A stretch of DNA of 64,000 nt from an uncultured bacterium (GCA_963695095.1 CAVOFT010000001.1:768001-832000); one strand, 5' to 3'. Numbered from the stretch's first letter, positions 5,894-25,986 are shown. The notes: generated by a model from the sequence alone, not told the origin. Made by a program: numbers and translations.

Positions 5894-6943
5894 CTACTGC
5901 CCCGGCGTGAAGACGAAGGGCGCCCGGAAGCTCACGCGGCCCGCCGGCACGGCGCCGAAGCTCCAGGCCTTCACCTGCGCCAGCACGCAGTCGAGCACGG
6001 CGGCGCTCCTGAGGCCGTCCTCGAGCACGGCGGCCTCGCTGACGCCGCCGTCGGCCTCCACCGTGAGGCGCAGCACCAGCTTGCCGCCGAGCGTGGCGTC
6101 GCGCTTCAGCGCGTTGTCGTAGCAGTAGCGGATGCCCGGCGCGTAGCGCTGCAGCACGGCGAGCAGGGAGGCGTTGCTGCGGATCTCGCCGCCGCCCGGC
6201 GCGCCCCCCGCCCGGGCGCCCGCTGCCCCAGCGCCTTCTGCGCCCTCGCTGCCCGCGCTCCAGTCGCCGATCTCCACGCTGAGCCCGGCCGCCAGCAGCA
6301 CGGGCCCGCCGCCCGCGGGCGCGGCGGCCGCCACGCTGCTCTCGACACTGCCCAGCGCCTCCTGCCCGCGGCCGCGGCGCAGGCGGCCGCGCGCCGCCCC
6401 GGCGGAGGGCGCCGCGGGGGCGTCCCCGGCGGGCAGCGCGGTGGAGAGCTTGGCCAGCGTGGCGTCCAGGGCCTGGGTCGTCGAGGCGAGAGCCTGCGTC
6501 GCCGCCTCGGCCTGGCGGCGTCCGGCCAGGCCCTGATCGGGCGCCACGCGCGGCGCCTGGGCCAGCCGCTCCACCCGCCGCGGCGCGCGCTCGGGCTCGG
6601 GCGCGGGGGTCGGGTCCGGCGGCTGCGGCGCGGCGGCCTCGGCTGCCGGCGCCGCCGCTAGCGGCGAGGCGACCGGCGCGCTCGCGACCGGCACCGGCGG
6701 CTCCGGGCGGCGCTCCTCGAGGATCAGCCGCGCGAGACGCTCGGGCATGGCCTCGAGCGTGGGCGCCTCCTCCACCGGCGCCGGCGCGAAGAGCAGCACC
6801 GCGAGGACGAGGAGGCCCAGCGCGGCGGCCATGGCGAAGGAGCGCCGCGTGCGCGCATCCATCTCGCCGATCAGGATGACGTGCCAGGGCAGCCGATAGC
6901 TGCGCGCGATGGGGCTGAGCGGCCGGCCGAGGGCGAAGGCCAT
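5894..6943 (-). CDS. AgmX/PglI C-terminal (TonB-C-like) protein, GltG-like
   Basis: ATG 6943; one TM, Pro/Ala-rich linker, C-terminal IRYCYDNALKRDATLGGKLVLRLTV...CVLAQVKAWSF...PFVF. Confidence 0.85.
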   Translation of the reverse strand: MAFALGRPLSPIARSYRLPWHVILIGEMDARTRRSFAMAAALGLLVLAVLLFAPAPVEEAPTLEAMPERLARLILEERRPEPPVPVASAPVASPLAAAPAAEAAAPQPPDPTPAPEPERAPRRVERLAQAPRVAPDQGLAGRRQAEAATQALASTTQALDATLAKLSTALPAGDAPAAPSAGAARGRLRRGRGQEALGSVESSVAAAAPAGGGPVLLAAGLSVEIGDWSAGSEGAEGAGAAGARAGGAPGGGEIRSNASLLAVLQRYAPGIRYCYDNALKRDATLGGKLVLRLTVEADGGVSEAAVLEDGLRSAAVLDCVLAQVKAWSFGAVPAGRVSFRAPFVFTPGQ

Positions 6944-7449
6944 CAGGAGTCCTTGATCACGGCCAGGGCGATGTCGCCGTAGCCGCTCTGGTTGCAGGTG
7001 TACATGACGCGCTGCAGGATGGCGAACTCGATGTCGCGATCGCCCTGGATCGCCACGCGCGGCCGGGCGCTCTCGCCCGTGCGCCGCGCGGCCAGGGCCT
7101 CGCTCTTCGCGCGCTCGGTCTGGAGGCGCTCGCCCAGGCCCGCGATCCAGAGCGACTCGCCCGCCAGACTCGCGCCGACCGAGGCCACCATCTCGTCGCC
7201 GACGAGGATGGCGTCGTCGAAGACCGCCACCACGAGCGCGGGCCGGGCGGCGTCCTGGCTGCGCGACGCGGGCAGATCCACGCCCGGCACGGGGGTCAGC
7301 GCCTCGCCGTCCACCACGAAGCTCTTGAGCAGGAAGAGCAGCAGCGAGGTGAAGATGTCCATCATCGAGGTCATGCGCAGCACGGCCTTGCGGTTCTCCC
7401 GCCGCAGGCGGCTGAAGCCGCCCCGACTGCGCCGCGTCGAAGCCTTCAT
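6943..7449 (-). CDS. ExbD/TolR family protein (AglS-like)
   Basis: TSMMDIFTSLLLFLLKSF TM with conserved Asp; IQGDRDIEFAILQRVMYTC. Confidence 0.9.
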   Translation of the reverse strand: MKASTRRSRGGFSRLRRENRKAVLRMTSMMDIFTSLLLFLLKSFVVDGEALTPVPGVDLPASRSQDAARPALVVAVFDDAILVGDEMVASVGASLAGESLWIAGLGERLQTERAKSEALAARRTGESARPRVAIQGDRDIEFAILQRVMYTCNQSGYGDIALAVIKDS

Positions 7450-7910
7450 CGCGAGCCTCCCTCGCCGCTCGCGGCGGCCAGGGCGATCCGGGGCCAGCCG
7501 GCCTCGCGGGCGATGTCCATGGTCGCCACGATGCGCTCGTAGCGCGTGTGCGGCGCCGAGACGATGATGATGTCCTTCTCGGCCGGATGCGTAGCGGCCA
7601 GCTCGCCGAGCAATGCGCCCAGGCGCGCGACGCCGGTCGGGCCATCGTCGCCCGCCGCGGGCGCGAGGCCCCGGCCCGCCAGGCGCCAGCCCCGCTCCTC
7701 CAGGCGCAGGGACAGCTCGAGGCCGGCCTCGTCGGTCGCCGGCGCGCTCGCATCGTCCGCGGGCATCTGCATGTCGATCACGGTCACCTGCAGGAAGACG
7801 GCCGAGATCAGCAGCATCGGGATCAGCGCCACGAAGATGTTCATCAGCGGCAGCATCTCCAGCTCCTCGGCGACGAGCTGCCGGAAGCTGCCGCGCGCGC
7901 GGCGGCCCAT
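7446..7910 (-). CDS. ExbD/TolR family protein (AglQ-like, Asn at the usual Asp position)
   Basis: ELEMLPLMNIFVALIPMLL TM; YERIVATMDIAREAG. Confidence 0.88.
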   Translation of the reverse strand: MGRRARGSFRQLVAEELEMLPLMNIFVALIPMLLISAVFLQVTVIDMQMPADDASAPATDEAGLELSLRLEERGWRLAGRGLAPAAGDDGPTGVARLGALLGELAATHPAEKDIIIVSAPHTRYERIVATMDIAREAGWPRIALAAASGEGGSR

Positions 7911-7911
7911 G

Positions 7912-8559
7912 CTAGATCTCCTCCGTGCCGCCCGTGAGCAGGCTGATCAGGCGCACGCTGAGTGCGTCCACGTTGTCGACGATGCCCTCCACCTTGCTCA
8001 CCAGGAAGCCGTGGATGAGCAGGGCCGGCACGGCGACGATGAGGCCGAAGGCCGTCGTGTTCAGCGCCTGGCTGATGCCCGCGGCGAGAAAGGCCGAGCG
8101 CTGGGAGGGATCGGCGGCGTCCACGGCGTTGAAGGCGGTGGTCAGGCCGAAGATGGTGCCCAGCAGGCCGAGCAGGGTGGCCGTGTTGGCCAGCATGTTC
8201 AGGTAGGAGAGCCGGCGGCCCAGCGGGGGCAGCACCACGGTGGCGGCGCTGTCGGCCGCCGCCTGCAGGGTCTCTTCGCTCGCCGCGGCCGCGCCCTCGC
8301 GCTGCAGGATGGCCTTGGCAACGCGCGTGACCGGGGACTCCACCTTCTGGCAGAGCGCGACGGCCCCGCCCTTGTCGCCGCGGCGCACCAGGCGCAGCAG
8401 GTCGCGGCTCATCTTCGTGGAGTTGAGCTGGGCCGCGCGCTGGATCACCCAGAGTCGCTCCAGGCTGAGGGCGAAGACCAGCAGGCCGGTGATCAGGATC
8501 ACGATCATGAAGGGGCCGCCGTTCTTGAAGAAGGCGGCGAAGGTGGCGACGGGGTTCAT
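7912..8559 (-). CDS. MotA/TolQ/ExbB proton-channel protein (AglR-like)
   Basis: ANTATLLGLLGTIFGL...AGISQALNTTAFGLIVAVP. Confidence 0.95.
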   Translation of the reverse strand: MNPVATFAAFFKNGGPFMIVILITGLLVFALSLERLWVIQRAAQLNSTKMSRDLLRLVRRGDKGGAVALCQKVESPVTRVAKAILQREGAAAASEETLQAAADSAATVVLPPLGRRLSYLNMLANTATLLGLLGTIFGLTTAFNAVDAADPSQRSAFLAAGISQALNTTAFGLIVAVPALLIHGFLVSKVEGIVDNVDALSVRLISLLTGGTEEI

Positions 8560-8562: not shown

Positions 8563-8916
8563 TCACTCCTCGACTACGGGGTTGGGTCCGGGATCCTGCG
8601 CAGCCGGCCGGCTCGTCGGCAGGGCCGCGGCGCGCAGCGCAAGCTGTGGGGGCGGCGCGGGCTCGAGCAGGCCGGCGGCGGCGATGAGTTGCCAGCCCAG
8701 GCGCAGCTCGACGCGGGCCGGCTCGCGGGCGTTGATGAAGAGCACTTCCGGGCCCTTCGCCACGCCCTCGATGGTGATGGCCTCCAGGCTGCGTTCGGCG
8801 CCGCCGGCGGTCGGCTGGGGCTCCGCGGCTGCCGCCGCCCGTTCGGTCGCCGCTGCTGCCGGAGCGAGCGCGAGGGCCAGCAGGAGCGCGATCCGCAGCG
8901 CCTCAGTTCGCATCAT
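8563..8916 (-). CDS. Small exported protein, GltF/CglF-like
   Basis: Signal peptide; LEAITIEGVAKGPEVLFINAR resembles the GltF IEG...P motif; lies between the TPR and TolQ genes. Confidence 0.6.
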   Translation of the reverse strand: MMRTEALRIALLLALALAPAAAATERAAAAAEPQPTAGGAERSLEAITIEGVAKGPEVLFINAREPARVELRLGWQLIAAAGLLEPAPPPQLALRAAALPTSRPAAQDPGPNPVVEE

Positions 8917-9826
8917 GCTTCGCCTCCGGGTCGGGTGCCGGGGCCGGCGGGCTGAGCGCGAGATGGCCCGCGGCCGGCGCGCCGGCCAGGGCGCGGCCCA
9001 GGGCATCGGGATCCACGCCGCCGCCGGGCGCGAGCCGGCGGTAGGCGAGGAAGTGCGCGCGGGCCGCCGCCTCGTCGAAGCGATAGTTCAGCGCCACGAT
9101 GGCCAGGTTGTAGTGGGCGCCCGCGCAGCGCGGATCGAGGGCGAGGGCGCGCTCGAACTCGGCGGCGGCCGCCTCGGGCCGGCCCGCATAGAGGAGGCCG
9201 ATGCCCAGGTTGTTCGCCGCGGCGGCCGAGCGGGGCGCCGCCTCGGCGGCCGCGCGCAGGTGGGGCTCGGCGGCAAAGGGATTTTCTCCGCGCAGGAGAA
9301 GGAAGCCCAGCGCGGCGGCCGTGCCCGACGCCTCCGGATCCAGTGCGCGGCTCAGGCGGGCCGATTCCTCCAGCTCGCCGAGCGCGTCGAGCTGCAGCGC
9401 GAGGGCGGCCGTCAAGGGGCCTCTGGGCTCGGCGCCGCCAGCCAGCGCCGCGCGCAGCAGCGCGGCCCCTGCGGCGAACTCGCCCGCCGCGTAGTGCAGC
9501 TTCGCCCGCAGGCTCAGCGAGGGAGCGTCGAGGGGATCCGCCGCCAGGGCGGCGTCCAGCGCAGCGCCCGCCGCCGGCAGGGAATCGACGGCCGCCAGCA
9601 GCGCGGCCAGGCGATAGGGCCAGTAGGGCTCCTGGGGCGCCCGGGCCGCCCAGGCGCGCAGCGAGTCCCCCTCGGCCGCGAGCTGCGCGCCGGCGTCTGC
9701 GGGCCGCGTGGCCGGCGCCTGGAGCGCACCGCCTCCCGCGCAGCCGGCCAGGACCGCGACGGCGAGCGGTGCCAGCGCCCGGGGGCGCGCGCAGCGGCTT
9801 GCAATCTGGAGCAGGCGGGACGGCAT
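8903..9826 (-). CDS. TPR lipoprotein (GltE-like)
   Basis: ATG 9826 after GAGGAG; lipobox LAGC; TPRs AANNLGIGLL and AHYNLAIVALNY. Confidence 0.8.
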   Translation of the reverse strand: MPSRLLQIASRCARPRALAPLAVAVLAGCAGGGALQAPATRPADAGAQLAAEGDSLRAWAARAPQEPYWPYRLAALLAAVDSLPAAGAALDAALAADPLDAPSLSLRAKLHYAAGEFAAGAALLRAALAGGAEPRGPLTAALALQLDALGELEESARLSRALDPEASGTAAALGFLLLRGENPFAAEPHLRAAAEAAPRSAAAANNLGIGLLYAGRPEAAAAEFERALALDPRCAGAHYNLAIVALNYRFDEAAARAHFLAYRRLAPGGGVDPDALGRALAGAPAAGHLALSPPAPAPDPEAKHDAN

Positions 9827-9889
9827 GGCGCTCCTCGTGCTTTCCCACGCCGCCGGTCGGGGTTGCCGCGGCGCGCTGAAATCACTGCT

Positions 9890-9905
9890 CGCAAGTCGCA
9901 TACCC
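9890..9905 (-). promoter_or_regulatory. Putative internal sigma54 (-24/-12) promoter
   Basis: Minus strand GGGTATGCGACTTGCG, GG-N10-GC spacing, in the 80-nt gap before the TPR lipoprotein. Confidence 0.45.
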
Positions 9906-9906
9906 A

Positions 9907-12900
9907 TCAAGGACGTAGCGGCGGATCAGAGGCCGCCACCAAGGGGAATTCCAGCTCGGGCAGGTGCAGGAAGCGCCGAGCAATCCGCGGCCACAACTCG
10001 TTTTTGGTGATTGCGACCCAGTTGTCCGGGTCTTCATCCGTGGGATCGGCCAGGCGCACGAGCTCGCTCCAGGTCTGCTCGCCGCGGGCGTGGAGTTCCC
10101 AGGCGCGATCCTCGAGCACCTCGAGATAGGCGAGACGGTCGTCGCCGGCGAGGGCCGCGGGCGCCGGGGCGGCGAGCAGCGCGTCGCCCAGCTCGTAGAG
10201 CGACTGGCCGAGCAGGTGCGCTGCCGCCCGCGACCAGCGCCGACTGCCGCGGGCGAGCACGTGCTGGCTCTGCTCGGCGAGGGCAGCGAGCAGGGCCTGC
10301 TTGCGCTCGAGGCCGGCCTCCAGCGGCGCGGCCAGGGCGACCGCCGCGAAGTCCCGGTGAAGAGCCAGGCAGGCGAGGTAGTCGACGTGGGCGAGCAGGT
10401 CCGCATCGGCGAGAGCGGGCTGCCGGGCGGCGCCGTCGAGATAGGCGGCGAGGGGACCGCCCGCCGCCCGGGCGTCGGCGAGGGGGGCGTCGCCCCGGGC
10501 CGCGAGCGCGGCGAGGGCGCGCGCGTGGAGAATCTCCGTGAGCGCCGCCGGGTGCGCGGGGAAGCGCGCGAGGAACTCGTCGCGATAGCGCTCGGCATCG
10601 GCGGCTCCCGCCGCGCCCGCCGCGAGATCGATGGCATGGAGCAGGGCAGCGGGTGCCTGGGCCAGCTCCTCGGCGCTGCGCGCGCCGGCGGCATAGGCGG
10701 CCAGGGCGGCGGCGGCCCGCCGCGGTGCGACCTTCGCGAAGAGCGCGGCTATCTGCAGCCGGGCATCGCCGGCGAGGCGGCTGTCCGGATGGCCTTCGGC
10801 CAGCGCGGTGAAGGCGCCGGCCGCCGCCTCGCGCTCGCCGCAGGCGGCGAAGCCCAATCCCGCGCGGTAGTGGGCCTCGTCTGCAAGCGCAAAGGCGGGC
10901 CAGGCGGCGGCGAGATCGGCGAAGCGGCGCGCGCCGGCGCAGTCGCTGCTGTCGGCGGCCATGGCCGCTGCGGCGGCGAGGAAGTGGCTCTCGGGCACGC
11001 GCAGGGCGAGGGCCGCGCCGAGGCTGTCGGCGCTCGCGGCGCCCGTGCCGCCCGCCGCACGCGCTGCGAGCGCGAGAGCCTCCTCGTAGCGCGAGGCGGC
11101 CGCGGCGGCCTCGCCCGCGCGGCTCAGGGCGTCTCCGCTGCGGGCGGCGGCCAGGGGGGCGGCCGCGTGGGCGGGCCAGCGCCGGGCGAAGGCCGCGAAG
11201 CCGGCCGCCGCTTCCCGGTGCCGAGCATCGCCGTCGCGCAGGCTGGACAGGCGCCAGAGCAGGGCCGGCGCGCGGGCGTCATTCGGCTGGCGATCGAGAT
11301 AGCGATCGCCGGCGGCGAGGAAGCGCGCGCGGGCGGCGGGGAGGGCATCGCCCGCGGCGGCGCCCTGCAGGGCATCGAGCAGGGCCAGGGCCTGCCAGTC
11401 GGCGAGGGCGGCCAGGTCCGCGTCCTCGGCGGCGCAGGCATAGTGGGCGAGGGCGGCCTCGCCGTCGCCCAGCTGCGCGGCCGCCTCGCCCGCTGCGAGT
11501 TGCCGGCGGGAGCGCTCGGCATCCTCGGGCCAGTGGGCGAGCAGCAGTTCGAGGCTCTCGCGCGCCCGGTGCCAGTCGCCGGCCGCCCCCCGCGCGCGGG
11601 CGCGAGCGAGGGCCTGGCTGGCCCGCTCGATCAGGCAGGCGCGCGCGAAGTCGCCGGCCGCCTGGGCAAGACTGTCCTCGGCCGCGCTGCGCGCTGCCTG
11701 CCAGCCGCTGCCCGGACGGAAGTGCAGAGCGAGCGTGCCCAGCTCGGCATCGACGCGCGTGGAGTCGCCGACGGCCCGGCGGTCGGCGAGCAGCAGCTGC
11801 GCCTGGGCGAGGGTGCCCGGCGCCAGCGGCCAGCGGGCAAGCCAGAGCGAGTCGGCGGCGGCCGCTTCCGCATGGAAAGCGTAGCTGCGCAGCAGGTCCG
11901 CCACATCCGTGAGCAGCGTCGGCGCGTAGGGCCGCTCGCCCTCACCCGCGAAGAAGCCCGCCCAGGCGGGCGCGCCGCCCGCCCGGGCCAGACATTCGGC
12001 GAGATGCGCCCGGGCCTCCCGAGCCAGCGACGCGCCGGCGCCGGCCGCGGCCTCGGCTTCCAGGTCGATGAGTCGGCGATAGAGCGCTGCGGCCTCGAGG
12101 AAGCGATCCTCGCCGTAGCGAAGCCAGCCCAGCGTGTAGAGCGCCACGCGCGTCAGTTCGGGGCTGCCCGTGGCGGCCACGGCGTCGTAGTGCAGGGCCG
12201 CCCGCGCGCGGTCGCCGCGGGCGAGGGCGCGCTCGGCGAGCCGAAGACGCGCCTGCGGCAGTTCGGGTGCCTCCGGGTGCTCGGCCAGCAGCGACTCGAG
12301 CTGGGCCTCGCCCTCGGGATCGCCCTGCTCGTCGAGCAGCATGCCGAGATTGAAGCGCACGGCGCCGCGGCCGGGATAGTCCGCGTCCTCGGCGAGGATG
12401 GCGCGGTAGAGCGCGCAAGCCGGCTCGAGATCCAGGAAGGGCGCCAGGGCGCGCTCGGCGGCGGCGTCGGCCGCGCCCTCCGCGCCGAGGAAGGCGGCCA
12501 TGCGCGCGGCGAAGGCCTCGCGCGCCTCATTCAAGCGCAACTCGGCGAGATGGAAGCGCAGCTCCCCGCGCGCCGTCGACTGCGGGTGGGCGGCGAGGAA
12601 GGCTTCGCAGCGCAGGCGCGCCTCGGCGTGGGCCGCGCTGGCAAGGGCGCCGCCAGCGGGAGTCTCGCTGCGCTGCAGCGCCGCCTCCGCGAGCTGGTAG
12701 TCGAGCAGCTCCTGCTCGGCGTCCAGGCGCTTCAAGCGCTCGGCGATGAGCCAGGCTGCTGCGCGCCCCTTTTGCGCGGCGAGGCGGGCGGCAGCGCTTG
12801 CCGCCTCGGCATGGGCAGCGGCCAGCGCGGCGCTCAGCGCCTCGCCCTGGGGATCGCCGGCGGCCAGGCAAGCGGCCAGCCTCGCCTCGATGTCCAGAGC

Positions 12901-14523: not shown

Positions 14524-14524
14524 C

Positions 14525-15292: not shown

Positions 15293-15294
15293 CG

Positions 15295-15867: not shown

Positions 15868-15876
15868 GGCGGTCTC

Positions 15877-16803: not shown

Positions 16804-16810
16804 CGGCTGC

Positions 16811-17581: not shown

Positions 17582-18183
17582 GGCGCGCTCCGATCCAGGC
17601 GCAGCGCGAAGCCCGTGGCGAGGATCTCCAGGCTGTCCATGGCGACGGGCGTGACGACCACCGTGTCCGCCATGCCCGCGCGGCGCAGCTCCTCGCCCTG
17701 GCCGAAGAAGAGCAGGAGCCAGAGCGCTTCCGTCGAATCGAGATCCGCGGGCAGGGGCGCCGCGAAGGCGAGCTGGGCATCCATCATCAGGTGATCGAAG
17801 CCGGTGACGGCGCGCGAGGCGCCGGCCACCGGCGTCGTGGCGGCGAGCAGAGCCTGCACGCGGCGGCTGTGCTGGCGCGGCTCATCGTCCGCGCGCAGGG
17901 GATGGGCGGCGAGGAGCGCGGCGTCGCCCCGGCGCAGCTCGATGGCGAGATCGCCCGTGCGGATGGCGCGGAAGGTGATGCGGACATCGACGCTCACCGC
18001 GAGGGTGCCGCTGGGCGCGACGAGGGCGCCGGCCGCCGGCTGGCTCGAGAGCAGGTCCAGACGGGTCCAGGTCTCCTCGACGCCGGGCGCCTCGAGACAG
18101 CCGCCTCCCGCCGCCGCGAGGGCGAGCGGCGGGAGGACGGCCATCGCGAAGCGCGCGCGCCGGAATCTGCCGGGGATGTTCAT
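17578..18183 (-). CDS. Hypothetical lipoprotein
   Basis: ATGA overlap; hydrophobic leader ending GGGC. Confidence 0.7.
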   Translation of the reverse strand: MNIPGRFRRARFAMAVLPPLALAAAGGGCLEAPGVEETWTRLDLLSSQPAAGALVAPSGTLAVSVDVRITFRAIRTGDLAIELRRGDAALLAAHPLRADDEPRQHSRRVQALLAATTPVAGASRAVTGFDHLMMDAQLAFAAPLPADLDSTEALWLLLFFGQGEELRRAGMADTVVVTPVAMDSLEILATGFALRLDRSAP

Positions 18184-19565
18184 TTCAGCAGGAGCAGCTT
18201 GCCCTGCTGCCGGGAATCGCCCTGGCTCAGGCGGCTGAAGTAGACGCCCGAGGGGAGGGCCTCGCCGCGCTCGTCGCGGCCGTCCCAGACCACGGCCTGC
18301 TCGCCCGCCGGGTAGCTGCCCTCGGCGAGCACGCGCAGGAGGCGCCCCTGCAGATCGTGGACCGCGAGGCGCAAGGGCGCGCCGCCGGCCGGCACGCTGA
18401 AGCGCAGGGTCGTGCTGGGATTGAAGGGATTGGGGTGATTGCCCAGCAGCGCGAGCGCGGCCGGAGTCCCGCCCTCGGCGGCCGGATCGCTCTCGCCCTG
18501 ATCGGGGGCGAGCGCGTAGAGGCGCAGGCCGCTGCCCTCGCCCCAGGCCTCGACCACGAGACCCACCGACTCCTGCCGCCGCAACTGGGTGCCCCGGCGA
18601 TGGTCGGTCACGGTCACCGTCGGCACGCAGAAGTCGCGCGGAGCCGCGAGGGCGGCCTCGAGGTCGCCCAGCGGCGCCAGGCTCGGCGAGAACTTGCGCA
18701 GGACGCCGGCCCGGGGCGCGGCGGCGTAGAGGTTGCCCCAGCCGTCGAGGTCCAGGCCCTCGACGCTGCCCAGGCCGTGGGCGAGCGCGCGCTCCCAGCG
18801 CAGGGCCCCGCCCGCTTCGCTGAGCTCGACGATGCGGCCGCCGTGGGCGTCGGCGACGACGACGCGATGCGCGCCGCGCGCCGCGTCCCAGCGGGCGGCG
18901 ATGGCGACGGGCCCGGCGAAGCGGCCCACCCCGCCGCCGAGGGCGCCGAAGCGCTCGCCCAGGGCGAAGCGCCCGTTCTCGACGGCGAAGCTGGCCACGC
19001 GATTGGCGCCCGTCTCCACGACGAAGAGGCGGTCGTCGGCGGCGGCGAAGGGCGTGCCGCCATCGGACCAGGCCAGGTCGCGCGGCGCTTTGAGGCCATC
19101 GATCGCGTAGAGCGGCGTCAGGCTCAGGGTCTCGCTGTCGTAGACGGCCTGGAACACCAGCACGCGACCATTACCGCTGTCAGCCAGGTAGATGCGGCCG
19201 GCGTCGTCGGCGGCCAGGCCGCGGGGCTCGACGAGCGCGCCGAAGGCGCTCCCTTCGCCCGTGAAGGCCGCCAGACCCAGGGTGGGGTCGCCGAAGAGCA
19301 GGCGGTTCCAGACCGGATCGCTCATCACCTGCAGGTAGCGCGCCTCGAGGTAGGGGAAGCGATCGTAGATGTCCACGCGGCCCACGATCACGCCGGCTGC
19401 CACGGCGCCGAAGAGATCGCGGTCCAGCTCCGCGCGGCTGGCGGCGCGGTCGAGCAGGCTGCGCTCGCCCGCGCCCGGCCAGGCCAGCGGGGTGAAGGTG
19501 GCGGCGGCGGCCGTCCCCGCGCAGGCGAGGAGGAGAGCCGCGGTCCCGAGGAAGAGGTGTCGCAT
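18180..19565 (-). CDS. NHL-repeat beta-propeller protein with FlgD-Ig/T9SS-like CTD
   Basis: PRGLAADDAGRIYLADSGNGRV NHL repeats; NHPNPFNPSTTLRF...WDGRD...SGVYFSRL...KLLLLK. Confidence 0.88.
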   Translation of the reverse strand: MRHLFLGTAALLLACAGTAAAATFTPLAWPGAGERSLLDRAASRAELDRDLFGAVAAGVIVGRVDIYDRFPYLEARYLQVMSDPVWNRLLFGDPTLGLAAFTGEGSAFGALVEPRGLAADDAGRIYLADSGNGRVLVFQAVYDSETLSLTPLYAIDGLKAPRDLAWSDGGTPFAAADDRLFVVETGANRVASFAVENGRFALGERFGALGGGVGRFAGPVAIAARWDAARGAHRVVVADAHGGRIVELSEAGGALRWERALAHGLGSVEGLDLDGWGNLYAAAPRAGVLRKFSPSLAPLGDLEAALAAPRDFCVPTVTVTDHRRGTQLRRQESVGLVVEAWGEGSGLRLYALAPDQGESDPAAEGGTPAALALLGNHPNPFNPSTTLRFSVPAGGAPLRLAVHDLQGRLLRVLAEGSYPAGEQAVVWDGRDERGEALPSGVYFSRLSQGDSRQQGKLLLLK

Positions 19566-19595
19566 GATGGGCTCCTTTCTCGATTCTCCCGAGTC

Positions 19596-20738
19596 CTAGA
19601 AGGTCAAGCTGAGGCCCGTCTCGAAGACGTTGGCCGCGAAGGCGTTGGTGTTGAAGTAGCGCTCGTAGCCCAGGCGCAGGCGCGCCGAGCGCAACAGGCT
19701 GAAGCGGGCGACGAGGGCCTGCGGCGCCCACTCCAGGCGGCCGCCGAACAGGTGCGCGTCGAAGGGGCCGAGCCGGTAGTCGCCGCTGCGATAGCCGCCG
19801 ATGCCCTCGGCGGCGGTGTACTCTTCAGCCCAGAACCAGGCGCTGCCCTGGTGATAGAAGCGATAGCGGTAGCGCACGACGAACTCCCGGCCCAGGTACT
19901 GATTGAGCTTGAGCCCCAGGGTGTGGGAGTCGAGCTGCCAGTCGTCCTGGTAGTAGCGGTACTCGACGTTCAGGCTCGAGCGTTCGCCGAGGTAGCGGTT
20001 GAGCTTGAGGAAGACATCCTCCCGCCGCCGCGAGTCGGGGTGCATCTCGGGCAAGCGCTCGCCACCCGCGTAGACCGCGCGGTAGAGGTTGTGCTGGAGC
20101 CCGCCATGCCGATTCAGCTCCAGACCCACGCGCAGCACCGTCTTCGGGTCGAGCACGCGCGTCGCCACCACGTTGAAGTGCGTGACGTCCTTCTCATCCG
20201 CCGCCGCCGCGTCCTCGTCGGCGAGCGGCTCGATGGTGTCCCAGCCATAGCTGAGGCCCACCGACAGATTGAGCTGGTCGCCGAAGAGGTCGCGACTCGT
20301 GCCGGCCGACACCATGCTGGCATCGTAGTCCGACTCGATGGAGCGGTAGTAGCCGAGTGCAGCCGGTCCCAGGGCGAGGCTTGCCTGCATGGCATTGCGG
20401 ATCTTCGTGTACTCGCTGAAGGCATCGCCGGCGCCGGCGATGGGCCGGCTGGCGGCGGTGATGGCGTCGGCCGCCTCGACGCTGCCGGCCGGCGACGGCA
20501 CGGGGGGAATGCTCACGCGCTCGTGGTCGAACTCCACATTCAGTCGACTGCGGCCGAGCGATAGGCCGTAGGAGACGTAGTGCGAGCGCACCTGGACGCC
20601 CTCCACATCGGTGAAGTAGTGGTAGAGCGCGCCGGCCTCCTGCTCGCCGGGCTCCGGCCAGGCCAGGGCCGGCGCCGCGACCGCGCCCAGCAGGGCGGCA
20701 AGGATGGCGCGCGGCCAGATCCGATGCCGGGGGATCAC
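19596..20738 (-). CDS. DUF3570 family outer-membrane beta-barrel protein
   Basis: GTG 20738; DAITAAS motif; ESDY, PDSR, YRYYQDDWQLDSHT, YRSGDYRL; terminal Phe; next to DUF4266/TlpA. Confidence 0.85.
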   Translation of the reverse strand: MIPRHRIWPRAILAALLGAVAAPALAWPEPGEQEAGALYHYFTDVEGVQVRSHYVSYGLSLGRSRLNVEFDHERVSIPPVPSPAGSVEAADAITAASRPIAGAGDAFSEYTKIRNAMQASLALGPAALGYYRSIESDYDASMVSAGTSRDLFGDQLNLSVGLSYGWDTIEPLADEDAAAADEKDVTHFNVVATRVLDPKTVLRVGLELNRHGGLQHNLYRAVYAGGERLPEMHPDSRRREDVFLKLNRYLGERSSLNVEYRYYQDDWQLDSHTLGLKLNQYLGREFVVRYRYRFYHQGSAWFWAEEYTAAEGIGGYRSGDYRLGPFDAHLFGGRLEWAPQALVARFSLLRSARLRLGYERYFNTNAFAANVFETGLSLTF

Positions 20739-20968
20739 TTGCACGCGCAGCCTCCCCCGGCGCCGCCGGCGCCGCCCGTCGAGGCCTCGCGGGCTTCCAG
20801 CCACTTCAGTTCCTTGGCCTCCTCGTCGCCTTCGGCGGCGAAGTCCATGATCGGGTCGGCCAGGTACTCGCGCTCATAGGGCCGCGCGCCGGCGCAGCCG
20901 CCGGCAGCGATGACGAGCGCGAGCAGGAGCGTGGCCAGCGGCGCGCGGCAGGACGGCGGGATACGCAT
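20735..20968 (-). CDS. DUF4266 family small lipoprotein
   Basis: Lipobox AGGC; PYEREYLADPIM...REASTGGAGGAGGGCACK. Confidence 0.88.
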   Translation of the reverse strand: MRIPPSCRAPLATLLLALVIAAGGCAGARPYEREYLADPIMDFAAEGDEEAKELKWLEAREASTGGAGGAGGGCACK

Positions 20969-21516
20969 CAGCGACTCCCCATGGCAGCGGTTGTGGGTGG
21001 AGCGGCGGCTGCCGCGAGCAACTCGGCGATGCTCGCCTCCAGGCGCTCCAGGCCGCGGGCGTCGGAGCCCAGCACGGCGAGACGCCGGGCGCCCTCGCCG
21101 TCGAAGACGAAGCTGCAGGGCAAGGCCGGGAGGTCGAGCTGCTTGGCCAGTCCATCGGGGCCGTCCAGGTAGAGCGGCATCGTCAGCCCGAGGTCGGCGG
21201 CGAATTGTCGCGCCTTCTCCGGATCACGATCGATGGAGACGACCCGCAGCTCGAGGCCGGCTGCCTGCCAGCGGGCCGCGCGGGCATCCAGCCAGGGCAG
21301 CTCGCGGCGACACGGCACGCACCAGCTCGCCCAGAAGTGGAGGAGCAGGGGCCGGCCTGGCAAGGGCGTGATGGTCGCGGCGCCGGTCTCCGCGAGGGCC
21401 GCCAGCGGGCGCGCGGCCAGGGCCTGCCGGGCGGGGTCGGGGTCGGCGGCTGCACGGCCGACCGGCGCCGCGAGCCCAGCCGCCAGGAGAATCGTCAAGA
21501 CCAGTGGTCCTCGCAT
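20968..21516 (-). CDS. TlpA-like thiol:disulfide oxidoreductase
   Basis: ATG 21516 after AGGAG; signal peptide; HFWASWCVPCRRELP. Confidence 0.92.
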   Translation of the reverse strand: MRGPLVLTILLAAGLAAPVGRAAADPDPARQALAARPLAALAETGAATITPLPGRPLLLHFWASWCVPCRRELPWLDARAARWQAAGLELRVVSIDRDPEKARQFAADLGLTMPLYLDGPDGLAKQLDLPALPCSFVFDGEGARRLAVLGSDARGLERLEASIAELLAAAAAPPTTAAMGSR

Positions 21517-21524
21517 GTCTGCTC

Positions 21525-23501
21525 CTAGCGGTACTGGGCGCCGAGCATCACCCAGAGGCGGAAGAGTTCGCGTTCGCGATCGGTGAGGGCGTTCGCACCG
21601 TCCGGATGGCGGCCGCTGCCCTCCCGGTTGCCGAGGCCCTCGGTGGCGTCGATGAGCAGCGAGCGGCGTGGGAAGCCCGGCCTCACCACCTGCGTCTCGA
21701 GGTGTTCGGAATCGCCGGAGAGATTGGTGTAGCCGCGCGGGAAGATCGCTCCCGTCTCTAGCGTGTCGGGCGCCGCGCCGAGGTCCAGGCCCGCCGGCGC
21801 CGGCAGGGTGTCGCCTTCCGCGATGACCGTCACGTGGTGGCAGGAAAGGCACTTGGCGTCGACGATGGGCGCGATGTGGTCCACGTAATTGATGACCTCG
21901 AAGTCCACCGGGTCCAGGTTCAGATTCGTGGCGGGGAGCGCGTCGGCCATCGGGAAGGGGTTGGTGGGCGGATCCGTGACCCGCTCGCGGTCCGTGTGGC
22001 AGCCCGTGCACTGGTTGACGTTCTCGCCGGGGCGCACGTAGAGCCAGGTGCGCTTGACGACGAAGCCGCGACCGTGCTCGTCGAGAGTGGCGAAGGAGAT
22101 CGGCGTATCGGCAGGCACCTCGATCTTGAAAGAGCCATCCGCCTGGACAGGCGCATAGCCGAGGAAGGCCCGCTTCTCGAACTCATTGGCCGAGAAATCG
22201 TTCATCTCGCCGGCCAAGGTGGGCCGCGCGGTGAAGACGGCGACCTGCGGCACCGGCGTCTCGCCGCGCACTGGGACTTCCTGGTCGTCCTGCAGGCTGC
22301 GGTTGAAGACGTCATGCGCGAGGAAGGTGCCGGAGTCGTAGGCGCGATTCACGGTGTCCGGGATGACGAGCGGCTTCTCGCGCGGCCACAGGAGCTGGGC
22401 GTCGTACTCGTTCGCCGCGGGATCGTTGTAGAGGAAGCTCAGCTCGTCAAGGCTCAGCGTCGCCGGATCATCCGGCGTGCCCGCGCCGCTCTGGTTGATC
22501 GTGAAGGTGTAGAGGCCGTAGTCAACCTGATCGTCCTCGGCGGCAGGCAGGGTGTAGCTGGCGACGTAGCGGTTGCCGCCGAGCGGGAAGGGGTACTTGA
22601 AGGCGCCGTAGGTCCAGGGCGCGCCATCCGTGTTGACGTCGGGGGTGAGCACGTCCCAGTAGTCGCTGTCCGGGCCGGGCGCCGGATCGGCGGGCCCGTT
22701 CTCGAGCTTGATGACGACGATGGGCCCGGCATCCTCGTTCACCATCGTGCTCTCGACGGCGATCAGGCGCCCGTCCGGCGTCGGCTGGGCGTGGAAGAAG
22801 TTGCGGTCATGGGGGCCGTACATGTGAAAGGTGCCCGTGCCGTCGGGATTGGTGAAGAAGAGCGGAAAGCGGTTGAAGTTGCCGAAGTGCTCCCAGCGCG
22901 TGTACATGATGTGGCCGTCCGCGAGCACGGTCGGGTCGAAGTCGTCGCTCTGGTTGAAGCTGATGCGTTCCAGGTTGCCGCCGTCGGCGTCGCAGGCGTA
23001 GAGGTGCTCGGCTGGCGAGTGGTTGTACTCGTCCATTTCGCCGGCGCGGCTGCTCGTGAAGACGATGCGGCCGTCGGGCAGGTAGAGCGGGTCGAAGTCG
23101 TGGCCGCCGCCCGCGGTCACGCGGCGCAGGCCGGCGCCATCGGCGCCGATCTCCCAGATGTTGCGGCTGGACTCGCCCGGCGCTCGCATCGAAAACAGGA
23201 TGCGCTCGCCGTCCCAGCTCACGCAGGGGTCGCTGATGCTGGCCCCGTTGAAGCTGGTGATGGCCGTCACCCGGCCGTCCGGCGCGATGGGCTGGAGCTT
23301 GTAGAGGTTGCCGCCGCCCCAGCTGCGATTGAGCGTTTCCTCGGCGCTGGTCTTGAGGAAGACGAGGGCGGGCGTCGCCGCGTCGCCGATGATGGCATCC
23401 GCGGGGGCGTCCTCGCGGCAGCCGGTCGCCGCGGCCAGCAGCGCCAGCGGCAGGAGCGCCGGCCAGCGGCGCCAGCGAGAGGGTGTGAGCGTGGCAGGCA
23501 T
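21525..23501 (-). CDS. HzsA-related lipoprotein (TolB/PD40-like propeller, HZS-alpha middle domain, two c-type hemes)
   Basis: AAGGAG RBS; lipobox ATGC; DFDPLYLPDGRIVFTSSR, YTRWEH, DGSFKIEVPADTPISF, CTGCH and CLSCH. Confidence 0.85.
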   Translation of the reverse strand: MPATLTPSRWRRWPALLPLALLAAATGCREDAPADAIIGDAATPALVFLKTSAEETLNRSWGGGNLYKLQPIAPDGRVTAITSFNGASISDPCVSWDGERILFSMRAPGESSRNIWEIGADGAGLRRVTAGGGHDFDPLYLPDGRIVFTSSRAGEMDEYNHSPAEHLYACDADGGNLERISFNQSDDFDPTVLADGHIMYTRWEHFGNFNRFPLFFTNPDGTGTFHMYGPHDRNFFHAQPTPDGRLIAVESTMVNEDAGPIVVIKLENGPADPAPGPDSDYWDVLTPDVNTDGAPWTYGAFKYPFPLGGNRYVASYTLPAAEDDQVDYGLYTFTINQSGAGTPDDPATLSLDELSFLYNDPAANEYDAQLLWPREKPLVIPDTVNRAYDSGTFLAHDVFNRSLQDDQEVPVRGETPVPQVAVFTARPTLAGEMNDFSANEFEKRAFLGYAPVQADGSFKIEVPADTPISFATLDEHGRGFVVKRTWLYVRPGENVNQCTGCHTDRERVTDPPTNPFPMADALPATNLNLDPVDFEVINYVDHIAPIVDAKCLSCHHVTVIAEGDTLPAPAGLDLGAAPDTLETGAIFPRGYTNLSGDSEHLETQVVRPGFPRRSLLIDATEGLGNREGSGRHPDGANALTDRERELFRLWVMLGAQYR

Positions 23502-23545: not shown

Positions 23546-24163
23546 TCAACGCGCCAGGCTGCGGTAGAAGATGAAGCCGGCGCTGTAGTCGGCGTAGTCG
23601 TAGACGAGCGTGCCGCCGGCCGTGGGATGCAGCACGCGCCGTCCGCGGGCATCGAGGCGCAGGGCGAGGTCGTCACGCAGGAAGAGCTCGAGTCCGCCGC
23701 CCGCGCTGAGCACGTTGCGGGTGACGGAGTCCGCCAGCAGGGCGCCGCCGGGGAAGGCGATCATCATGCCGTAGCTCGCGGTGAGGTAGGGCTGCAGGCG
23801 CCAGGGCAGGGGCCGGCGGAGCAGCAGGCCGAAGTCGTGGAAGAGCGCATGCACGGACGAGGCCGGGTTGTGGGCGACCGTGGCCTCGTAGGCCAGCCAG
23901 CTGCGCGGCGCGTAGGCGGCGCGCAGCAGGTACTGACGCTGGCCGCCCAGCTCGCCGGCGCCGATGCTGAAGCCGAAGCGCCGCTGGTAGGGGCGATCGC
24001 CGGGCGCGAGGGCCAGCCGGCCCTGGGCCAGCGCGGGAACGAGGTACTCGACCTCCGCCCTGCCAGCGGCGGCCGGCGCCGCGGCTGCGCCGAGCGGCGC
24101 GCCGGCGAGGGCGGCGGCCCCGAGCAGCCCGGCGAGGGCGCGCCTGCTGCTGAGCGCGGCCAT
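23546..24163 (-). CDS. Small outer-membrane beta-barrel protein
   Basis: ATG 24163; signal peptide; LQPYLTASYG, AGGGLELFLRDDLALRLDAR. Confidence 0.75.
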   Translation of the reverse strand: MAALSSRRALAGLLGAAALAGAPLGAAAAPAAAGRAEVEYLVPALAQGRLALAPGDRPYQRRFGFSIGAGELGGQRQYLLRAAYAPRSWLAYEATVAHNPASSVHALFHDFGLLLRRPLPWRLQPYLTASYGMMIAFPGGALLADSVTRNVLSAGGGLELFLRDDLALRLDARGRRVLHPTAGGTLVYDYADYSAGFIFYRSLAR

Positions 24164-24639
24164 CACTGCCACGCTCCGGCGAGAATCCAGTCGCGGATGG
24201 CGATGAAGCCGGGATCGTCGCTGCTGTCGAAGCCCGCGAGGCTTTCGCCGGCGTGGTCGAGGCCGCCCGCCTCCTGGCTGAGGGGCTTGAGCAGCAGCGG
24301 GCTGGCCAGGGGGTCCCAGCCGTAGACCTGCAGGGCGGCCTGTTCGAAATCGAAGCCGGGGTCGGGATCCTCGGGGGGCGAGAGCTCGAAGCTGCCCCGC
24401 GGGCCGCCGCCGTGGCAGAGCGCGTTGTTGCAGCCCTCGGCCACGAGGACTGGCCTCACTTCGGCGGCGAAGCGGACCGCATCGAGGACGAAGAGGGAGT
24501 CGCCGCCGGGCGGCGCGGGCGCAGCGGCCGGCCCACGGCAGGCGCTGACGGCGAGGGCCATCAACAAGAGCGCGAGCGCGGCCGGCTTCGGCTCGCGGCC
24601 GGCGGCAACCCCTGTCCGTCGACTTCCCTTCGCCTCCAC
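24163..24639 (-). CDS. Cytochrome c-like lipoprotein with CX4CH motif
   Basis: AAGGAG RBS; lipobox VSAC; VRPVLVAEGCNNALCHGG...SPLLLKPL...H...IRDWI. Confidence 0.7.
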   Translation of the reverse strand: MEAKGSRRTGVAAGREPKPAALALLLMALAVSACRGPAAAPAPPGGDSLFVLDAVRFAAEVRPVLVAEGCNNALCHGGGPRGSFELSPPEDPDPGFDFEQAALQVYGWDPLASPLLLKPLSQEAGGLDHAGESLAGFDSSDDPGFIAIRDWILAGAWQ

Positions 24640-24767
24640 GCTGACTCCTTCCGGGCCGACCTCGTGCAGAGTGCCGGCGCCTGGCTAGCTCGGGCGCGCC
24701 GTCCGCGAGCGCCCGGATCCCCGGGCATTTCCCATCGCGGCTCGCCCCTTGGGTCGGGCCGGGAGAC

Positions 24768-24783
24768 AGCAATGCCTGCGCCA
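24768..24783 (-). promoter_or_regulatory. Sigma54 (-24/-12) promoter at the head of the operon
   Basis: Minus strand TGGCGCAGGCATTGCT vs consensus TGGCACG-N4-TTGCW; AT-richer tract upstream. Confidence 0.7.
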
Positions 24784-24894
24784 AACCGGAAGGAATAGCT
24801 AAATAGAGGATTTCGGATGCGAAACAGCCGGTATCATGGGACCGTGCACGGGAAGATGAAGCCAATTGGGGACGGGGGGACAGCGGAGCCTGGG

Positions 24895-25986
24895 CTAGAA
24901 GTGCTGCACGCGGTAGCGTCGAGACAGGGCGGGATCGAGGGTGAAGGCGCCGGCGAGGGTCTCCTCCACCCAGATGAGGTCGGGTCCTGCCGCGTCGGGG
25001 CGGCGTTCGACGAGGATGACGTCCATGTCCAGGCGCGCCCGGGCGAGCCGGCGCGCCGCCGTCGGGCCGAGCACGGTGAGGGCCGTCGCCCAGGCATCGG
25101 CGAGCGTGGCGCTGTCCATGACGACGGTCACCGAGGCCAGGGAATCCACGGGCCAGCCGCTGCGGGGGTCGAGGATGTGCCCGTAGCGCCTGCCCCCGGC
25201 GGCGACGAACTGCTCGTAGTCGCCGCTGGTGGCCACGGCGGCACGCGGCAGGGTGAGTGTGCCGAGGGTATGCTCGCGGTCGGCCGGATCGCGCAGGCCG
25301 AGCCGCCAGGCGGCGCGCCCGGGCGGCGCGCCGAGGAGGGCGATGTTGCCGGACAGGTCGACGAGCGCGTCCTGCACGCCCAGCGCGACCAGCGAGTCGC
25401 GAGCGCAGTCGACGGCATGGCCCTTGGCAATGCCGCCGAGATCCAGGCGCAGGCCGGGGCGCAGGGCGCTGAGCCGGTCGGCGGCGGGCGGACAGCGCAG
25501 CTTGCGGAAACCGATGTCGGGCAACAGCGCGGCGATGGCCGCGGAGTCCGGCAGCTGCCTGGCGCCGCCGAGGAAGCCCCAGAGGCGGACCAGCGGCTCC
25601 ACGGTGGGATCGAAGGCGCCCGCGCTCTCCGCCGCGACCTGCAGGGCTGCAGCGAGGACGCGCGCGGTCTCCGGCTCAGGCGCGAGCGGCGCGCCGTCCA
25701 CCGTGCCGTCGAGGGCGGCGTTGATGCGCGCCACTTCGCTGGTGCCGGTCCAGTTGCTCATCAGCGAGTCCACGCGGGTGAAGCCGGCCAGGACGCGGGT
25801 GGCCAGAGGCGCGAGCGCGAGGGAATCCGCACCGACGAGCGTCAGCGTGACCGTCGTGCCCATGGTGCGCGTGGTGAAGCGAATCGGCCGGACGGCGGGC
25901 GCGGCAAGGCTTCCGTCCGGCAGCGCCGCCGCGGCGACGAGGAAGACGATCATGAAGGCGATGGGCAGGCGGCGTCGCGGCGACAT
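24895..25986 (-). CDS. apbE: FAD:protein FMN transferase
   Basis: MGTTV, GAFDPTV, LDLGGIAKGHAVD, ATSGDYEQ, HILDPRSG, ADAWATA. Confidence 0.96.
   Translation of the reverse strand: MSPRRRLPIAFMIVFLVAAAALPDGSLAAPAVRPIRFTTRTMGTTVTLTLVGADSLALAPLATRVLAGFTRVDSLMSNWTGTSEVARINAALDGTVDGAPLAPEPETARVLAAALQVAAESAGAFDPTVEPLVRLWGFLGGARQLPDSAAIAALLPDIGFRKLRCPPAADRLSALRPGLRLDLGGIAKGHAVDCARDSLVALGVQDALVDLSGNIALLGAPPGRAAWRLGLRDPADREHTLGTLTLPRAAVATSGDYEQFVAAGGRRYGHILDPRSGWPVDSLASVTVVMDSATLADAWATALTVLGPTAARRLARARLDMDVILVERRPDAAGPDLIWVEETLAGAFTLDPALSRRYRVQHF

Follow-up and report, generated by a model that had tools for sequence, protein, structure and literature searches.

The Glt-type core complex (AglR, AglQ, AglS, GltG, GltD, GltE, and GltC) was described in 2011, and its function outside the myxobacteria is unknown (Luciano 2011, PMC3169522). 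Marinobacter, Saccharophagus degradans, Teredinibacter turnerae, Geobacter, and Fibrobacter succinogenes are among the carriers named there. In the full gliding machine, GltD, GltE, GltF, GltG, and GltJ are described as a periplasmic shaft reaching an outer-membrane platform of paired barrels that expose lipoproteins, and the cytoplasmic FHA, ZnR, and GYF domains of GltG and GltJ tie these two proteins to the track (PMC11761067). [quoted passage not shown] A TlpA/DUF4266/DUF3570 neighborhood is also mentioned in a myxosortase preprint. Here, we analyzed a stretch of 64,000 nucleotides from an uncultured bacterium (CAVOFT010000001.1:768001-832000; the window), which brings three orphan subjects together in one string of 20 genes: the Glt-type core, the DUF3570 flavinylation module, and the HzsA-like cytochromes. 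On balance, we read these genes as encoding one conserved trans-envelope machine of the Tol/Ton/Glt class that carries a thiol–flavin–heme module in the outer membrane.

The cluster shares with the Agl–Glt core an operon-like string that contains a TolQ-type channel, two TolR/ExbD-type subunits, a TonB-like AgmX/PglI protein, a very large tetratricopeptide repeat (TPR) protein, and a TPR lipoprotein (PMC3169522). In contrast to the core, its scaffold is a single protein of 1538 amino acids, one ExbD has an Asn in place of the Asp, and the string is continuous with heme, flavin, and thiol genes, for which we found no mention in PMC3169522. With the module of Meheust 2021, the cluster has in common the four protein families, a C-terminal CXC in DUF4266, and a DsbD encoded elsewhere, as in 316 of the clusters reported there (PMC8238504). 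It differs from this module in that ApbE is displaced and the remaining genes are embedded among heme, barrel, TPR, and motor genes.

Layout and linkage of the gene string

At a G+C content of ∼72%, shadow frames crowd the raw lists of open reading frames (ORFs) in the window. Genes were therefore called from a minus-strand frame plot of G+C at third codon positions together with a listing of start codons, and domains were assigned by profile searches of Pfam and NCBIfam. This gave 20 successive co-directional genes, all on the minus strand, from g1 (25986) down to g20 (5894). According to the coordinates, the junctions from g1 to g10 measure 255, −1, 44, 8, −1, −10, 30, −4, and −4 nt, and those from g10 to g20 measure 7, 9, 2, 1, −1, −14, 3, 1, −4, and −1 nt, where negative values denote overlaps. 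All junctions are thus overlaps or at most 44 nt long, except for the 255 nt between apbE and g2 and for the g14/g15 junction, which changes from −1 to 80 nt if g15 starts later, at ATG 9826. Start codons are uncertain for g2, g7, g10, g15, and g16. These coordinates bear out the layout given in the first-pass annotation of the window (spacing of at most 44 nt save one 80-nt gap, with apbE just upstream). Its domain names were likewise confirmed by Pfam and NCBIfam (ApbE, HZS_alpha, TlpA type, DUF4266, DUF3570, NHL with a C-terminal domain (CTD), SH3 with barrel, TPR, MotA_ExbB, two ExbD, and AgmX), and the CX4CH motif that it had noticed in a lipoprotein is present and conserved among orthologs.

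The borders of the cluster hold because the flanking genes, a Vut_1 transporter downstream and a divergent Lon-like protease upstream, are unrelated. A promoter and terminator scan returned no promoter-like and two terminator-like sites, compared with 3.5 expected. For window positions 12001–22000, no public sequencing run and no RNA dataset is listed.

The genome (3.64 Mb, two contigs) contains one DUF3570 match and one AgmX domain above cut-off, which lie 13.6 kb apart. Using an alignment of g11 from nine relatives, we found 83 related loci among ∼185,000 species genomes and kept 80, all of them from metagenome-assembled genomes, with the taxon labels Krumholzibacteriota/-ia, Eisenbacteria/Eiseniibacteriota, Latescibacter-, or “bacterium.” The 80 loci were searched by tblastn with the 20 window proteins, and counts were limited to loci with enough flank. 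All 66 loci that extend 4.2 kb or more upstream contain g7, and all 58 that extend 7.7 kb or more in this direction contain g4; of the 49 loci that reach 6.2 kb or more downstream, 48 contain g14. g7 and g14 occurred together in 43 of the 44 loci that extend far enough on both sides. All matches lie on one strand and in the gene order of the window, and ApbE occupies an upstream position in 38 of 48.

We then counted whole genomes, defining a DUF3570 match below 170 bits as divergent and one with E below 1e-80 as canonical. Among the 208 species genomes of the window's phylum (Krumholzibacteriota label), 45 contain AgmX, 44 contain the divergent DUF3570, and 42 contain both. The five genomes with only one of the two (three with AgmX, two with the barrel) are all fragmented assemblies, and whole families are without both, such as family f4 (0/43). 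When both reside on the same contig, they lie 11–15 kb apart on one strand (20 of 21 pairs). In the second phylum (Eisenbacteria label, 206 genomes), 60 of the 74 genomes with AgmX also possess the divergent DUF3570, 14 have AgmX alone, and about four have the barrel alone. Here, 33 of the 60 pairs are on one contig, all of them 12–15 kb apart (31 on the same strand, two on opposite strands), and 27 are on different contigs (26 without the unpublished genome G284). For the two phyla pooled, 53 of 54 same-contig pairs are 11–15 kb apart. With its AgmX marker in 119 of the 414 species genomes searched, the system is common in these two poorly known soil and sediment phyla.

The canonical DUF3570 of the same genomes is encoded elsewhere, in a compact TlpA–DUF4266–DUF3570–ApbE operon, with a single exception. 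In genome G295 of the second phylum, a canonical DUF3570 (287 bits) lies within ∼1 kb of AgmX on the opposite strand (G295:C89:17610-20028). The divergent DUF3570 of this genome is found 14 kb from AgmX, as usual, and both paralogous flavin modules flank the operon.

Outside the lineage, redox and scaffold genes of the cluster recur in a second gene order. Scanning 1.84 billion representative proteins with a g4 profile (HMMER) gave 1,622 proteins at E ≤ 1e-30, among them a few full-length relatives with 35–41% identity, including protein P0012. An alignment of four such relatives led to 80 metagenome loci, which we searched in all frames with hidden Markov models built from the 20 ortholog alignments. 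This set holds loci in the window's own order and also contigs with GC contents of 0.38–0.69 (L114, L116, L118, L119, L123–L125, L127, L132, and L134) on which the genes follow a different order. There, ApbE is followed by an HzsA-like protein of ∼1000 amino acids (two to three CXXCH), a g2-like protein, an SH3-barrel, and a barrel, and then by TlpA, DUF4266, DUF3570, a g13-like protein of ∼190 amino acids, and TPR proteins of ∼630 and ∼945 amino acids; the domains were confirmed by Pfam. In the second order, all eight loci that continue for 7.4 kb or more on the downstream side of the HzsA-like gene reach the g14-like gene, and L116 extends to a g15-like gene. Another distant locus, L133 (GC 0.44), encodes an HzsA-like protein, an SH3-barrel, a barrel, proteins of 178 and 601 amino acids, a TPR protein of 953 amino acids, a TPR lipoprotein of 206 amino acids, and a protein of 89 amino acids, followed by MotA_ExbB, an Asn-type ExbD, and an Asp-type ExbD that is cut by the end of the locus. 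A tblastn search with a second-order HzsA-like protein gave no match in plasmids.

Linkage survives a change in gene order and a very different base composition, and genes for barrels and TPR proteins alternate with those of the redox module. Descent alone can hardly account for this, and we take the conservation as good evidence for one system, a conclusion that we hold with considerable confidence.

Several observations weigh against a single machine. Among the 13 metagenome loci designated non-K that carry a DUF3570 module and extend 6 kb or more downstream, five (L106, L113, L138, L157, and L160) contain the HzsA-like/barrel/TlpA/DUF4266/DUF3570 set but show neither TPR nor motor genes in the vicinity, indicating that the redox module can stand without an adjacent motor; L105 and L106 also carry an NHL-CTD gene. 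L133 possesses motor and scaffold but no TlpA, DUF4266, or DUF3570 at that place, and its TolQ is no closer to g17 (124 bits) than to a paralog elsewhere in the genome of the window (118 bits). Within the available flank, none of the second-order loci extends to an AgmX gene. In seven of the 43 loci with full downstream flank, AgmX comes right after the TPR lipoprotein, without TolQ/ExbD, and the same holds for G013 and G018 of family f3, in which ApbE follows AgmX on the other strand. The single-contig genome G033 has the cluster split into two parts 2.1 Mb apart, one with g2–g8, a barrel, g11, and g12, and the other with a shorter TPR protein, g15, a small gene, TolQ, two ExbD, and AgmX with ApbE alongside. 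Related genomes are not independent, and counts within two phyla could reflect one inherited block. The flavinylation motif of g7 has a Thr, Ser, or Ala at the usual Gly position (see below). Finally, every contact between the motor and outer-membrane proteins, and the action of the motor itself, is something that we infer.

These observations could also be read as two independent systems, an autonomous HzsA-like/DUF3570 redox module of the outer membrane and a Glt-type core with a different task, that lie side by side and are inherited as one block, uncoupled from each other. Motor-less redox loci (L105/L106, L138, and L157/L160), stator-less variants, and the division in G033 would fit such an arrangement, and linkage within two sister phyla could be plain descent. 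We nevertheless consider it unlikely, because linkage is seen again in a different gene order and at very different composition in eight of eight loci, junctions of 1 nt or overlaps run along the whole string, including g13/g14, the second order mixes SH3-barrel, barrel, and TPR genes with the redox genes, and the canonical DUF3570 paralog of the same genomes is not linked to a motor.

The first-pass annotation had proposed a single machine made of a motor half and a redox half and had asked whether the two rarely co-occur. They are adjacent in two phyla, and redox and scaffold genes are again adjacent in the second gene order. The proposal thus gains from conserved linkage; its mechanism (assembly, gating, or transport) is conjectural, and redox modules without a motor exist. 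The border between the halves does not fall where the resemblance to Glt would put it, as the SH3-barrel, the second barrel, a g13-like protein, and the TPR scaffold also accompany the HzsA-like and DUF3570 genes in other lineages.

The thiol, flavin, and heme proteins

The first gene, g1 (24895..25986), encodes ApbE, an exported FAD:protein FMN transferase (PF02424, 265.6 bits). The genome has a second ApbE locus (G000:C1:2672767-2673577), at which the profile match falls into two pieces in different frames, which may reflect a frameshift or an assembly error.

The genes g5–g7 follow the order TlpA–DUF4266–DUF3570, which is the canonical module order in relatives, and the assignment of ApbE, TlpA, DUF4266, and DUF3570 to a recurring flavinylation module, already made from the sequence of the window, agrees with Meheust 2021 (PMC8238504). 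The protein encoded by g5 (20968..21516) is a TlpA/ResA-type periplasmic thiol-disulfide oxidoreductase with the motif WCVPC, kept as WCxPC among orthologs. It matches AhpC-TSA, Redoxin, and Thioredoxin_8, whereas the published module names PF13899 (PMC8238504). The DUF4266 lipoprotein g6 (20735..20968; PF14086, 52.2 bits) carries a C-terminal GCACK, and its C-terminal GGGCAC is conserved in 64 sequences. A DsbD is encoded in the genome outside the cluster; the top match (G000:C1:2136848-2137483) lies ∼6 kb from a TolQ/ExbD pair at 2143137–2144825.

The divergent DUF3570 outer-membrane barrel g7 (19596..20744) matches PF12094 with 132 bits over profile positions 136–374 only and shows 23–25% identity to the canonical DUF3570 of relatives. 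The AlphaFold2 model of g7, calculated from 64 sequences, is a confidently predicted all-β barrel with a pLDDT score of 90.5. It has no N-terminal plug or extension before the first strand, and a Foldseek search of the PDB returned generic porins, with the BcsC barrel on top (template modeling (TM) score 0.60). The g7 sequence contains no [ST]GA[ST] motif. Instead of the two [S/T]GA[S/T] motifs reported for DUF3570 (PMC8238504), it has a single conserved stretch, e-A-v-D-A-I-T-x-A-S-R-P-I, in which the D, the second A, and the S are each invariant in 66 of 66 sequences and x is Thr in 47, Ser in 11, Ala in four, and Gly in four. In the model, this motif sits in a long connection (residues 80–111) between the third and fourth strands. 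By the usual topology of barrels, this connection is presumably an outer loop or a segment that fills the lumen.

The motif recognized by ApbE is D-x-x-[S/T]-G-A-[S/T], with flavin mononucleotide (FMN) attached to the last residue, and in one tested enzyme a Gly-to-Ala exchange in the motif left about half of the flavinylation (PMC12052999). At the homologous place, orthologs in other gene orders have D-G-I-S-G-A-S, D-S-I-T-G-A-S, or a tandem of D-T-V-S-S-A-S and D-V-V-T-T-A-S. Because some of these orthologs hold the canonical form there and the Gly-to-Ala exchange keeps half of the activity, the g7 motif is probably a live variant flavinylation site, and the ApbE encoded by g1 most likely flavinylates g7 on one Ser.

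The fourth gene, g4 (21525..23501), encodes a lipoprotein of 658 amino acids that resembles the diheme protein HzsA and possesses a TolB-like propeller (HZS_alpha, 64.5 bits, and PD40). When compared with the PDB, the g4 profile aligned with HzsA (5c2v_A, E 3.6e-31) in five colinear segments that include both CXXCH, and with TolB (E 4e-7). The propeller, the middle domain, and the C-terminal heme domain of HzsA are all colinear with g4, and the two heme motifs (C498/C501/H502 and C551/C554/H555) show no variation among 52 sequences. In HzsA, a Tyr four residues behind the His of the first CXXCH ligates heme alpha-I (PMC12758564). This ligand is missing from the g4 family, which has H-E-D-R after the first CXXCH in place of the H-Y-G-S-Y of HzsA. 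Moreover, g4 is lipid-anchored, scores 102.7 with the hydrazine synthase model NF052339 (cut-off 800), and has no HzsB/C-like partner among the 20 genes in Pfam or NCBIfam. Judged by the missing ligand, the missing partner, and a score far below the cut-off, g4 is not a hydrazine synthase. Among the widespread HzsA-like cytochromes, some have been interpreted as pointing to anammox beyond the Planctomycetota, and in a cold-seep survey, HzsA-like/HZS_alpha-type genes from 10 phyla are taken to represent a potential for anammox (PMC11828985). Because the g4 family sits in an envelope operon and is without the Tyr ligand, we advise caution in taking genes with an HZS_alpha domain as anammox markers.

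A further putative heme c site is present in g2 (24163..24639), a lipoprotein of 158 amino acids recognized by its lipobox and the motif C-x4-C-H-G-G-G. GC-x4-CHGGG is kept in 57 sequences, and g2 orthologs in the second order show CXXCH or CX4CH at the same place; Pfam at E ≤ 1 gave no family for 10 of 10 g2 orthologs. From these motifs, heme would be attached to both g2 and g4. In P0012, an HzsA-like protein of 752 amino acids, the C-terminal region is 31% identical to g2 across 93 residues. This fusion hints that g4 and g2 work together.

The gene between them, g3 (23546..24163), encodes a protein of 205 amino acids that is conserved in 59 sequences, ends in FYR, matches TIGR04565 weakly, and is probably an outer-membrane β-barrel. 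The name “barrel” that g3 and g10 had been given at first rests on weak matches to outer-membrane protein families and on beta-rich sequences with C-terminal aromatic residues; it stands as a likely fold.

Downstream of g7, g8 (18180..19565) encodes an NHL propeller with a putative C-terminal sorting domain of the type IX secretion system (T9SS) kind (FlgD_ig, 33 bits, cut-off 27; TIGR04183, 20.8 bits, just under the cut-off of 23). This tail is conserved across orthologs. The genome also contains a SprA-like gene (SprA_N, 57 bits, in a frame of 2199 amino acids) and 148 FlgD_ig matches, so that T9SS-type cargo is very abundant. In Desulfovibrio ferrophilus, NHL propellers adjoin outer-membrane cytochromes (PMC5815863), which would fit a surface-facing redox complex, if only as a parallel.

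The position of the flavin site on the long inter-strand connection of the barrel and the surface propeller g8, together with the TonB-like C-terminal domain of g20, are also compatible with a TonB-like system of reductive uptake, in which the module would reduce an extracellular substrate such as a metal and the motor would energize import via a barrel. Such a role would find a parallel in the 25 DUF3570 clusters that contain a VIT1 iron transporter (PMC8238504). However, Pfam and NCBIfam detected neither an inner-membrane importer nor a periplasmic binding protein among the 20 genes, g7 is devoid of an N-terminal plug, and a large TPR scaffold is foreign to TonB systems. Uptake therefore appears distinctly unlikely to us.

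Barrels, scaffold, and motor

The redox genes are followed by g9 (17578..18183), a lipoprotein whose lipobox GC is conserved in 71 sequences and which has no family in Pfam (including E ≤ 1) or NCBIfam, and by two barrels. g10 (16811..17581) is an outer-membrane barrel-like protein conserved in 73 sequences (OMP_b-brl, E 0.008, below cut-off). g11 (15877..16803) combines an SH3 domain with an outer-membrane barrel (SH3_3, 31.3 bits; OMP_b-brl, 27.9 bits; TIGR04565, 53.4 bits).

Neither of the two exported proteins that come next belongs to a Pfam or NCBIfam family. g12 (15295..15867) is lineage-specific. g13 (14525..15292) is predicted by AlphaFold2 to consist of a helical hairpin and a β-sandwich (pLDDT 82.2), and a structure search returned only generic matches to this combination (Z ≤ 8.2). 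Weak g13-like proteins (15–22 bits) come after DUF3570 in the second gene order. In a protein atlas, the nearest clusters of g12 and g13 are without names, and that of g12 stems from the same two phyla. A lead from the atlas to PepSY for g12/g13 (0.75) was too weak and was not used.

The largest protein of the cluster, g14 (9907..14523), is a periplasmic TPR scaffold of 1538 amino acids with YbgF/CpoB-like modules (TIGR02795, 53 bits). The second-order TPR proteins of ∼945 amino acids are colinear with positions 645–1535 of the g14 model (E 1e-41 to 1e-87), and the preceding proteins of ∼630 amino acids match its first ∼290 positions weakly but colinearly (7–21 bits). As its two ends match two successive second-order proteins, g14 appears to have arisen by their fusion. 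With the YbgF model (cut-off 90.1), the g14-like proteins of the second order score 98–115 bits; they also contain BamD/YfiO modules (up to 93.9 bits) and weak TPR_Slam matches. g15 (8903..9907) is a TPR lipoprotein that matches TPR families and reaches 28 bits with the GltE model (cut-off 225); its ortholog in L133 reaches 44 bits.

With g15, the number of lipoproteins in the cluster comes to five. This number, together with the BamD/YfiO and TPR_Slam matches and with the Glt model, which puts GltK and CglB at the outward side of GltA/B (PMC11761067), raises the idea of a machine that surfaces the lipoproteins g4, g2, and g9, similar to Slam or to the Glt platform exposing CglB, with the redox proteins as mere cargo. 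We regard it as very unlikely, given that no DUF560-type Slam barrel was detected by Pfam or NCBIfam and that the BamD and YbgF matches are to generic TPR modules.

The small exported protein g16 (8563..8916) was found by tblastn in only 11 of the 80 related loci, and L133 has an ORF of 89 amino acids in its position. The earlier label “GltF-like” for g16 reflects size and position only and was dropped, as there is no match in Pfam (including E ≤ 1) or NCBIfam.

The motor itself is encoded by g17–g20. g17 (7912..8559) is a proton channel of the TolQ/ExbB/AglR type (PF01618, 87.5 bits); the genome has eight loci of the MotA/ExbB family, g17 included. Of the two ExbD/TolR-type subunits, g18 (7446..7910; PF02472, 55.5 bits) has an Asn at the position of the proton-carrying Asp, and g19 (6943..7449; PF02472, 49 bits) retains the Asp. 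The Asn is found in 34 of 35 g18 orthologs and in the distant L133 (L133:14743-15231), and the membrane Asp of g19 is kept in 33 of 33 orthologs. A stator with one “dead” plug seems to be a fixed trait of the system. g18 is the only match in this genome to the Asn-type ExbD of L133. The Asp-type ExbD of L133 is no closer to g19 than to the paralogous pair at 2.143–2.145 Mb. As this TolQ/ExbD pair scores equal or higher, we do not treat the L133 stator as orthologous to g17/g19 on the basis of best hits.

The last gene, g20 (5894..6943), encodes a bitopic TonB/TolA-like transducer with an AgmX/PglI C-terminal domain (NF033768, 72.7 bits, cut-off 40). This is the sole copy above cut-off in the genome. 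As read from the sequence, ∼36 residues precede a single hydrophobic span and a Pro/Ala-rich linker, which leaves no cytoplasmic domain. Complex predictions of the C-terminal domain with g7, g11, and g3 scored 0.00 and were counted neither way.

The last seven genes had been compared with the Agl/Glt core in the first-pass annotation. Their composition does correspond to that of Luciano 2011 (PMC3169522), but the cluster misses the Glt equivalogs (GltE 28/225, GltG 51/650, and GltJ 40/450 bits, score/cut-off), and no GltD or GltC model matched the cluster's TPR proteins in the NCBIfam and Pfam scans. The cluster also resembles Tol–Pal in that its stator is driven by protons, its transducer is of the TolA/TonB kind, the N-terminal part of g4 is a TolB-like propeller, and the TPR modules of g14 are YbgF-like. 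Again, the equivalog scores stay below their cut-offs (TolQ 60/221, TolR 21/127, TolB 57/343, and YbgF 53/90), and there is no Pal. In contrast to Tol–Pal, the propeller of g4 is fused to heme domains and lipid-anchored. This likeness suggests that force may act on a propeller protein tethered to the outer membrane, as a functional analogy and not as membership.

AgmX, a stator of TolQ and two ExbD, TPR proteins, and paired small barrels parallel Agl–Glt, and with the surface propeller they could also point to a motor for gliding or surface translocation of the Agl–Glt/Nfs kind, in which g8 or g4 would be the adhesin. We judge this highly improbable. The cytoplasmic coupling parts of the full gliding machine are absent, none of the 20 proteins being cytoplasmic, and the short stretch ahead of the span in g20 contrasts with the cytoplasmic domains of GltG and GltJ (PMC11761067). 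There is no GltI-, GltH-, or GltJ-like gene, with equivalog scores far below the cut-offs, and the conserved heme and flavin sites would have no place in a gliding motor.

Proposed mechanism and implications

For the single machine that we favor, we propose the following arrangement. In the inner membrane, the TolQ-like g17 and the mixed ExbD plugs g18 and g19 would energize the AgmX-type transducer g20. The TPR scaffold g14, the TPR lipoprotein g15, the small exported g16, and g12 and g13 would occupy the periplasm. In the outer membrane, the small barrels g3, g10, and SH3-g11 and the lipoprotein g9 may carry the redox module, made up of the flavinylated g7, the thiol relay g5 and g6, the putative heme lipoproteins g4 and g2, and the surface propeller g8, which would be exported to the surface by the type IX pathway.

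Electrons could pass from cytoplasmic thioredoxin via DsbD, TlpA, and the CXC of DUF4266 to the FMN of the barrel and then to the hemes of g4 and g2. A path from thiols to flavin has been suggested for the module by Meheust 2021 (PMC8238504); the heme proteins are our extension. The flavin would convert the two-electron chemistry of thiols to the one-electron chemistry of hemes. The proton motor would do mechanical work on the redox module, as in Tol–Pal, TonB, and Agl–Glt, for example by pulling or exposing the HzsA-like lipoprotein. By analogy, the C-terminal AgmX domain might grip a strand of its partner; a candidate for this strand is the conserved N terminus of mature g4, as the analog of a TolA box.

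The conserved combination of 20 genes appears to be new, and its parts are of known kinds. Our literature search found no paper that joins a Tol/Glt-type motor to HzsA-like/DUF3570 genes; most subscription journals and the supplementary neighborhood figure of Luciano 2011 were outside its coverage. If the genes form one machine, each of the three orphan subjects provides the others with a testable partner, making the system a good experimental target. To our knowledge, it would be the first case of a Tol/Ton-class motor that serves an outer-membrane redox module.

A more far-reaching idea, which we consider speculative and rather unlikely, is that the Glt-type core as such is a motor, a proton-driven TolQ/ExbD/AgmX-TPR apparatus that mechanically operates an HzsA-like cytochrome lipoprotein on an FMN barrel by gating, exposing, or pulling it, and that gliding and spore-coat motors are later offshoots that swapped the redox cargo for adhesins or polymers. 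If true, envelope redox chemistry would be coupled to mechanical work by the Glt-type core.

Two other regions of the window contain genes for exported or pilin-like proteins. Downstream of the cluster, two convergent genes at positions 1609–4912 code for large exported proteins whose C-terminal sorting domains are of the FlgD_ig/CHU_C type; one of these proteins carries a subtilase fragment. At positions 37753–42080, following an AddAB-like helicase–nuclease pair (30901–37702), two ORFs of 391 and 1051 amino acids possess N-terminal methylation (pilin-like) motifs, and one of them contains an fn3 domain.

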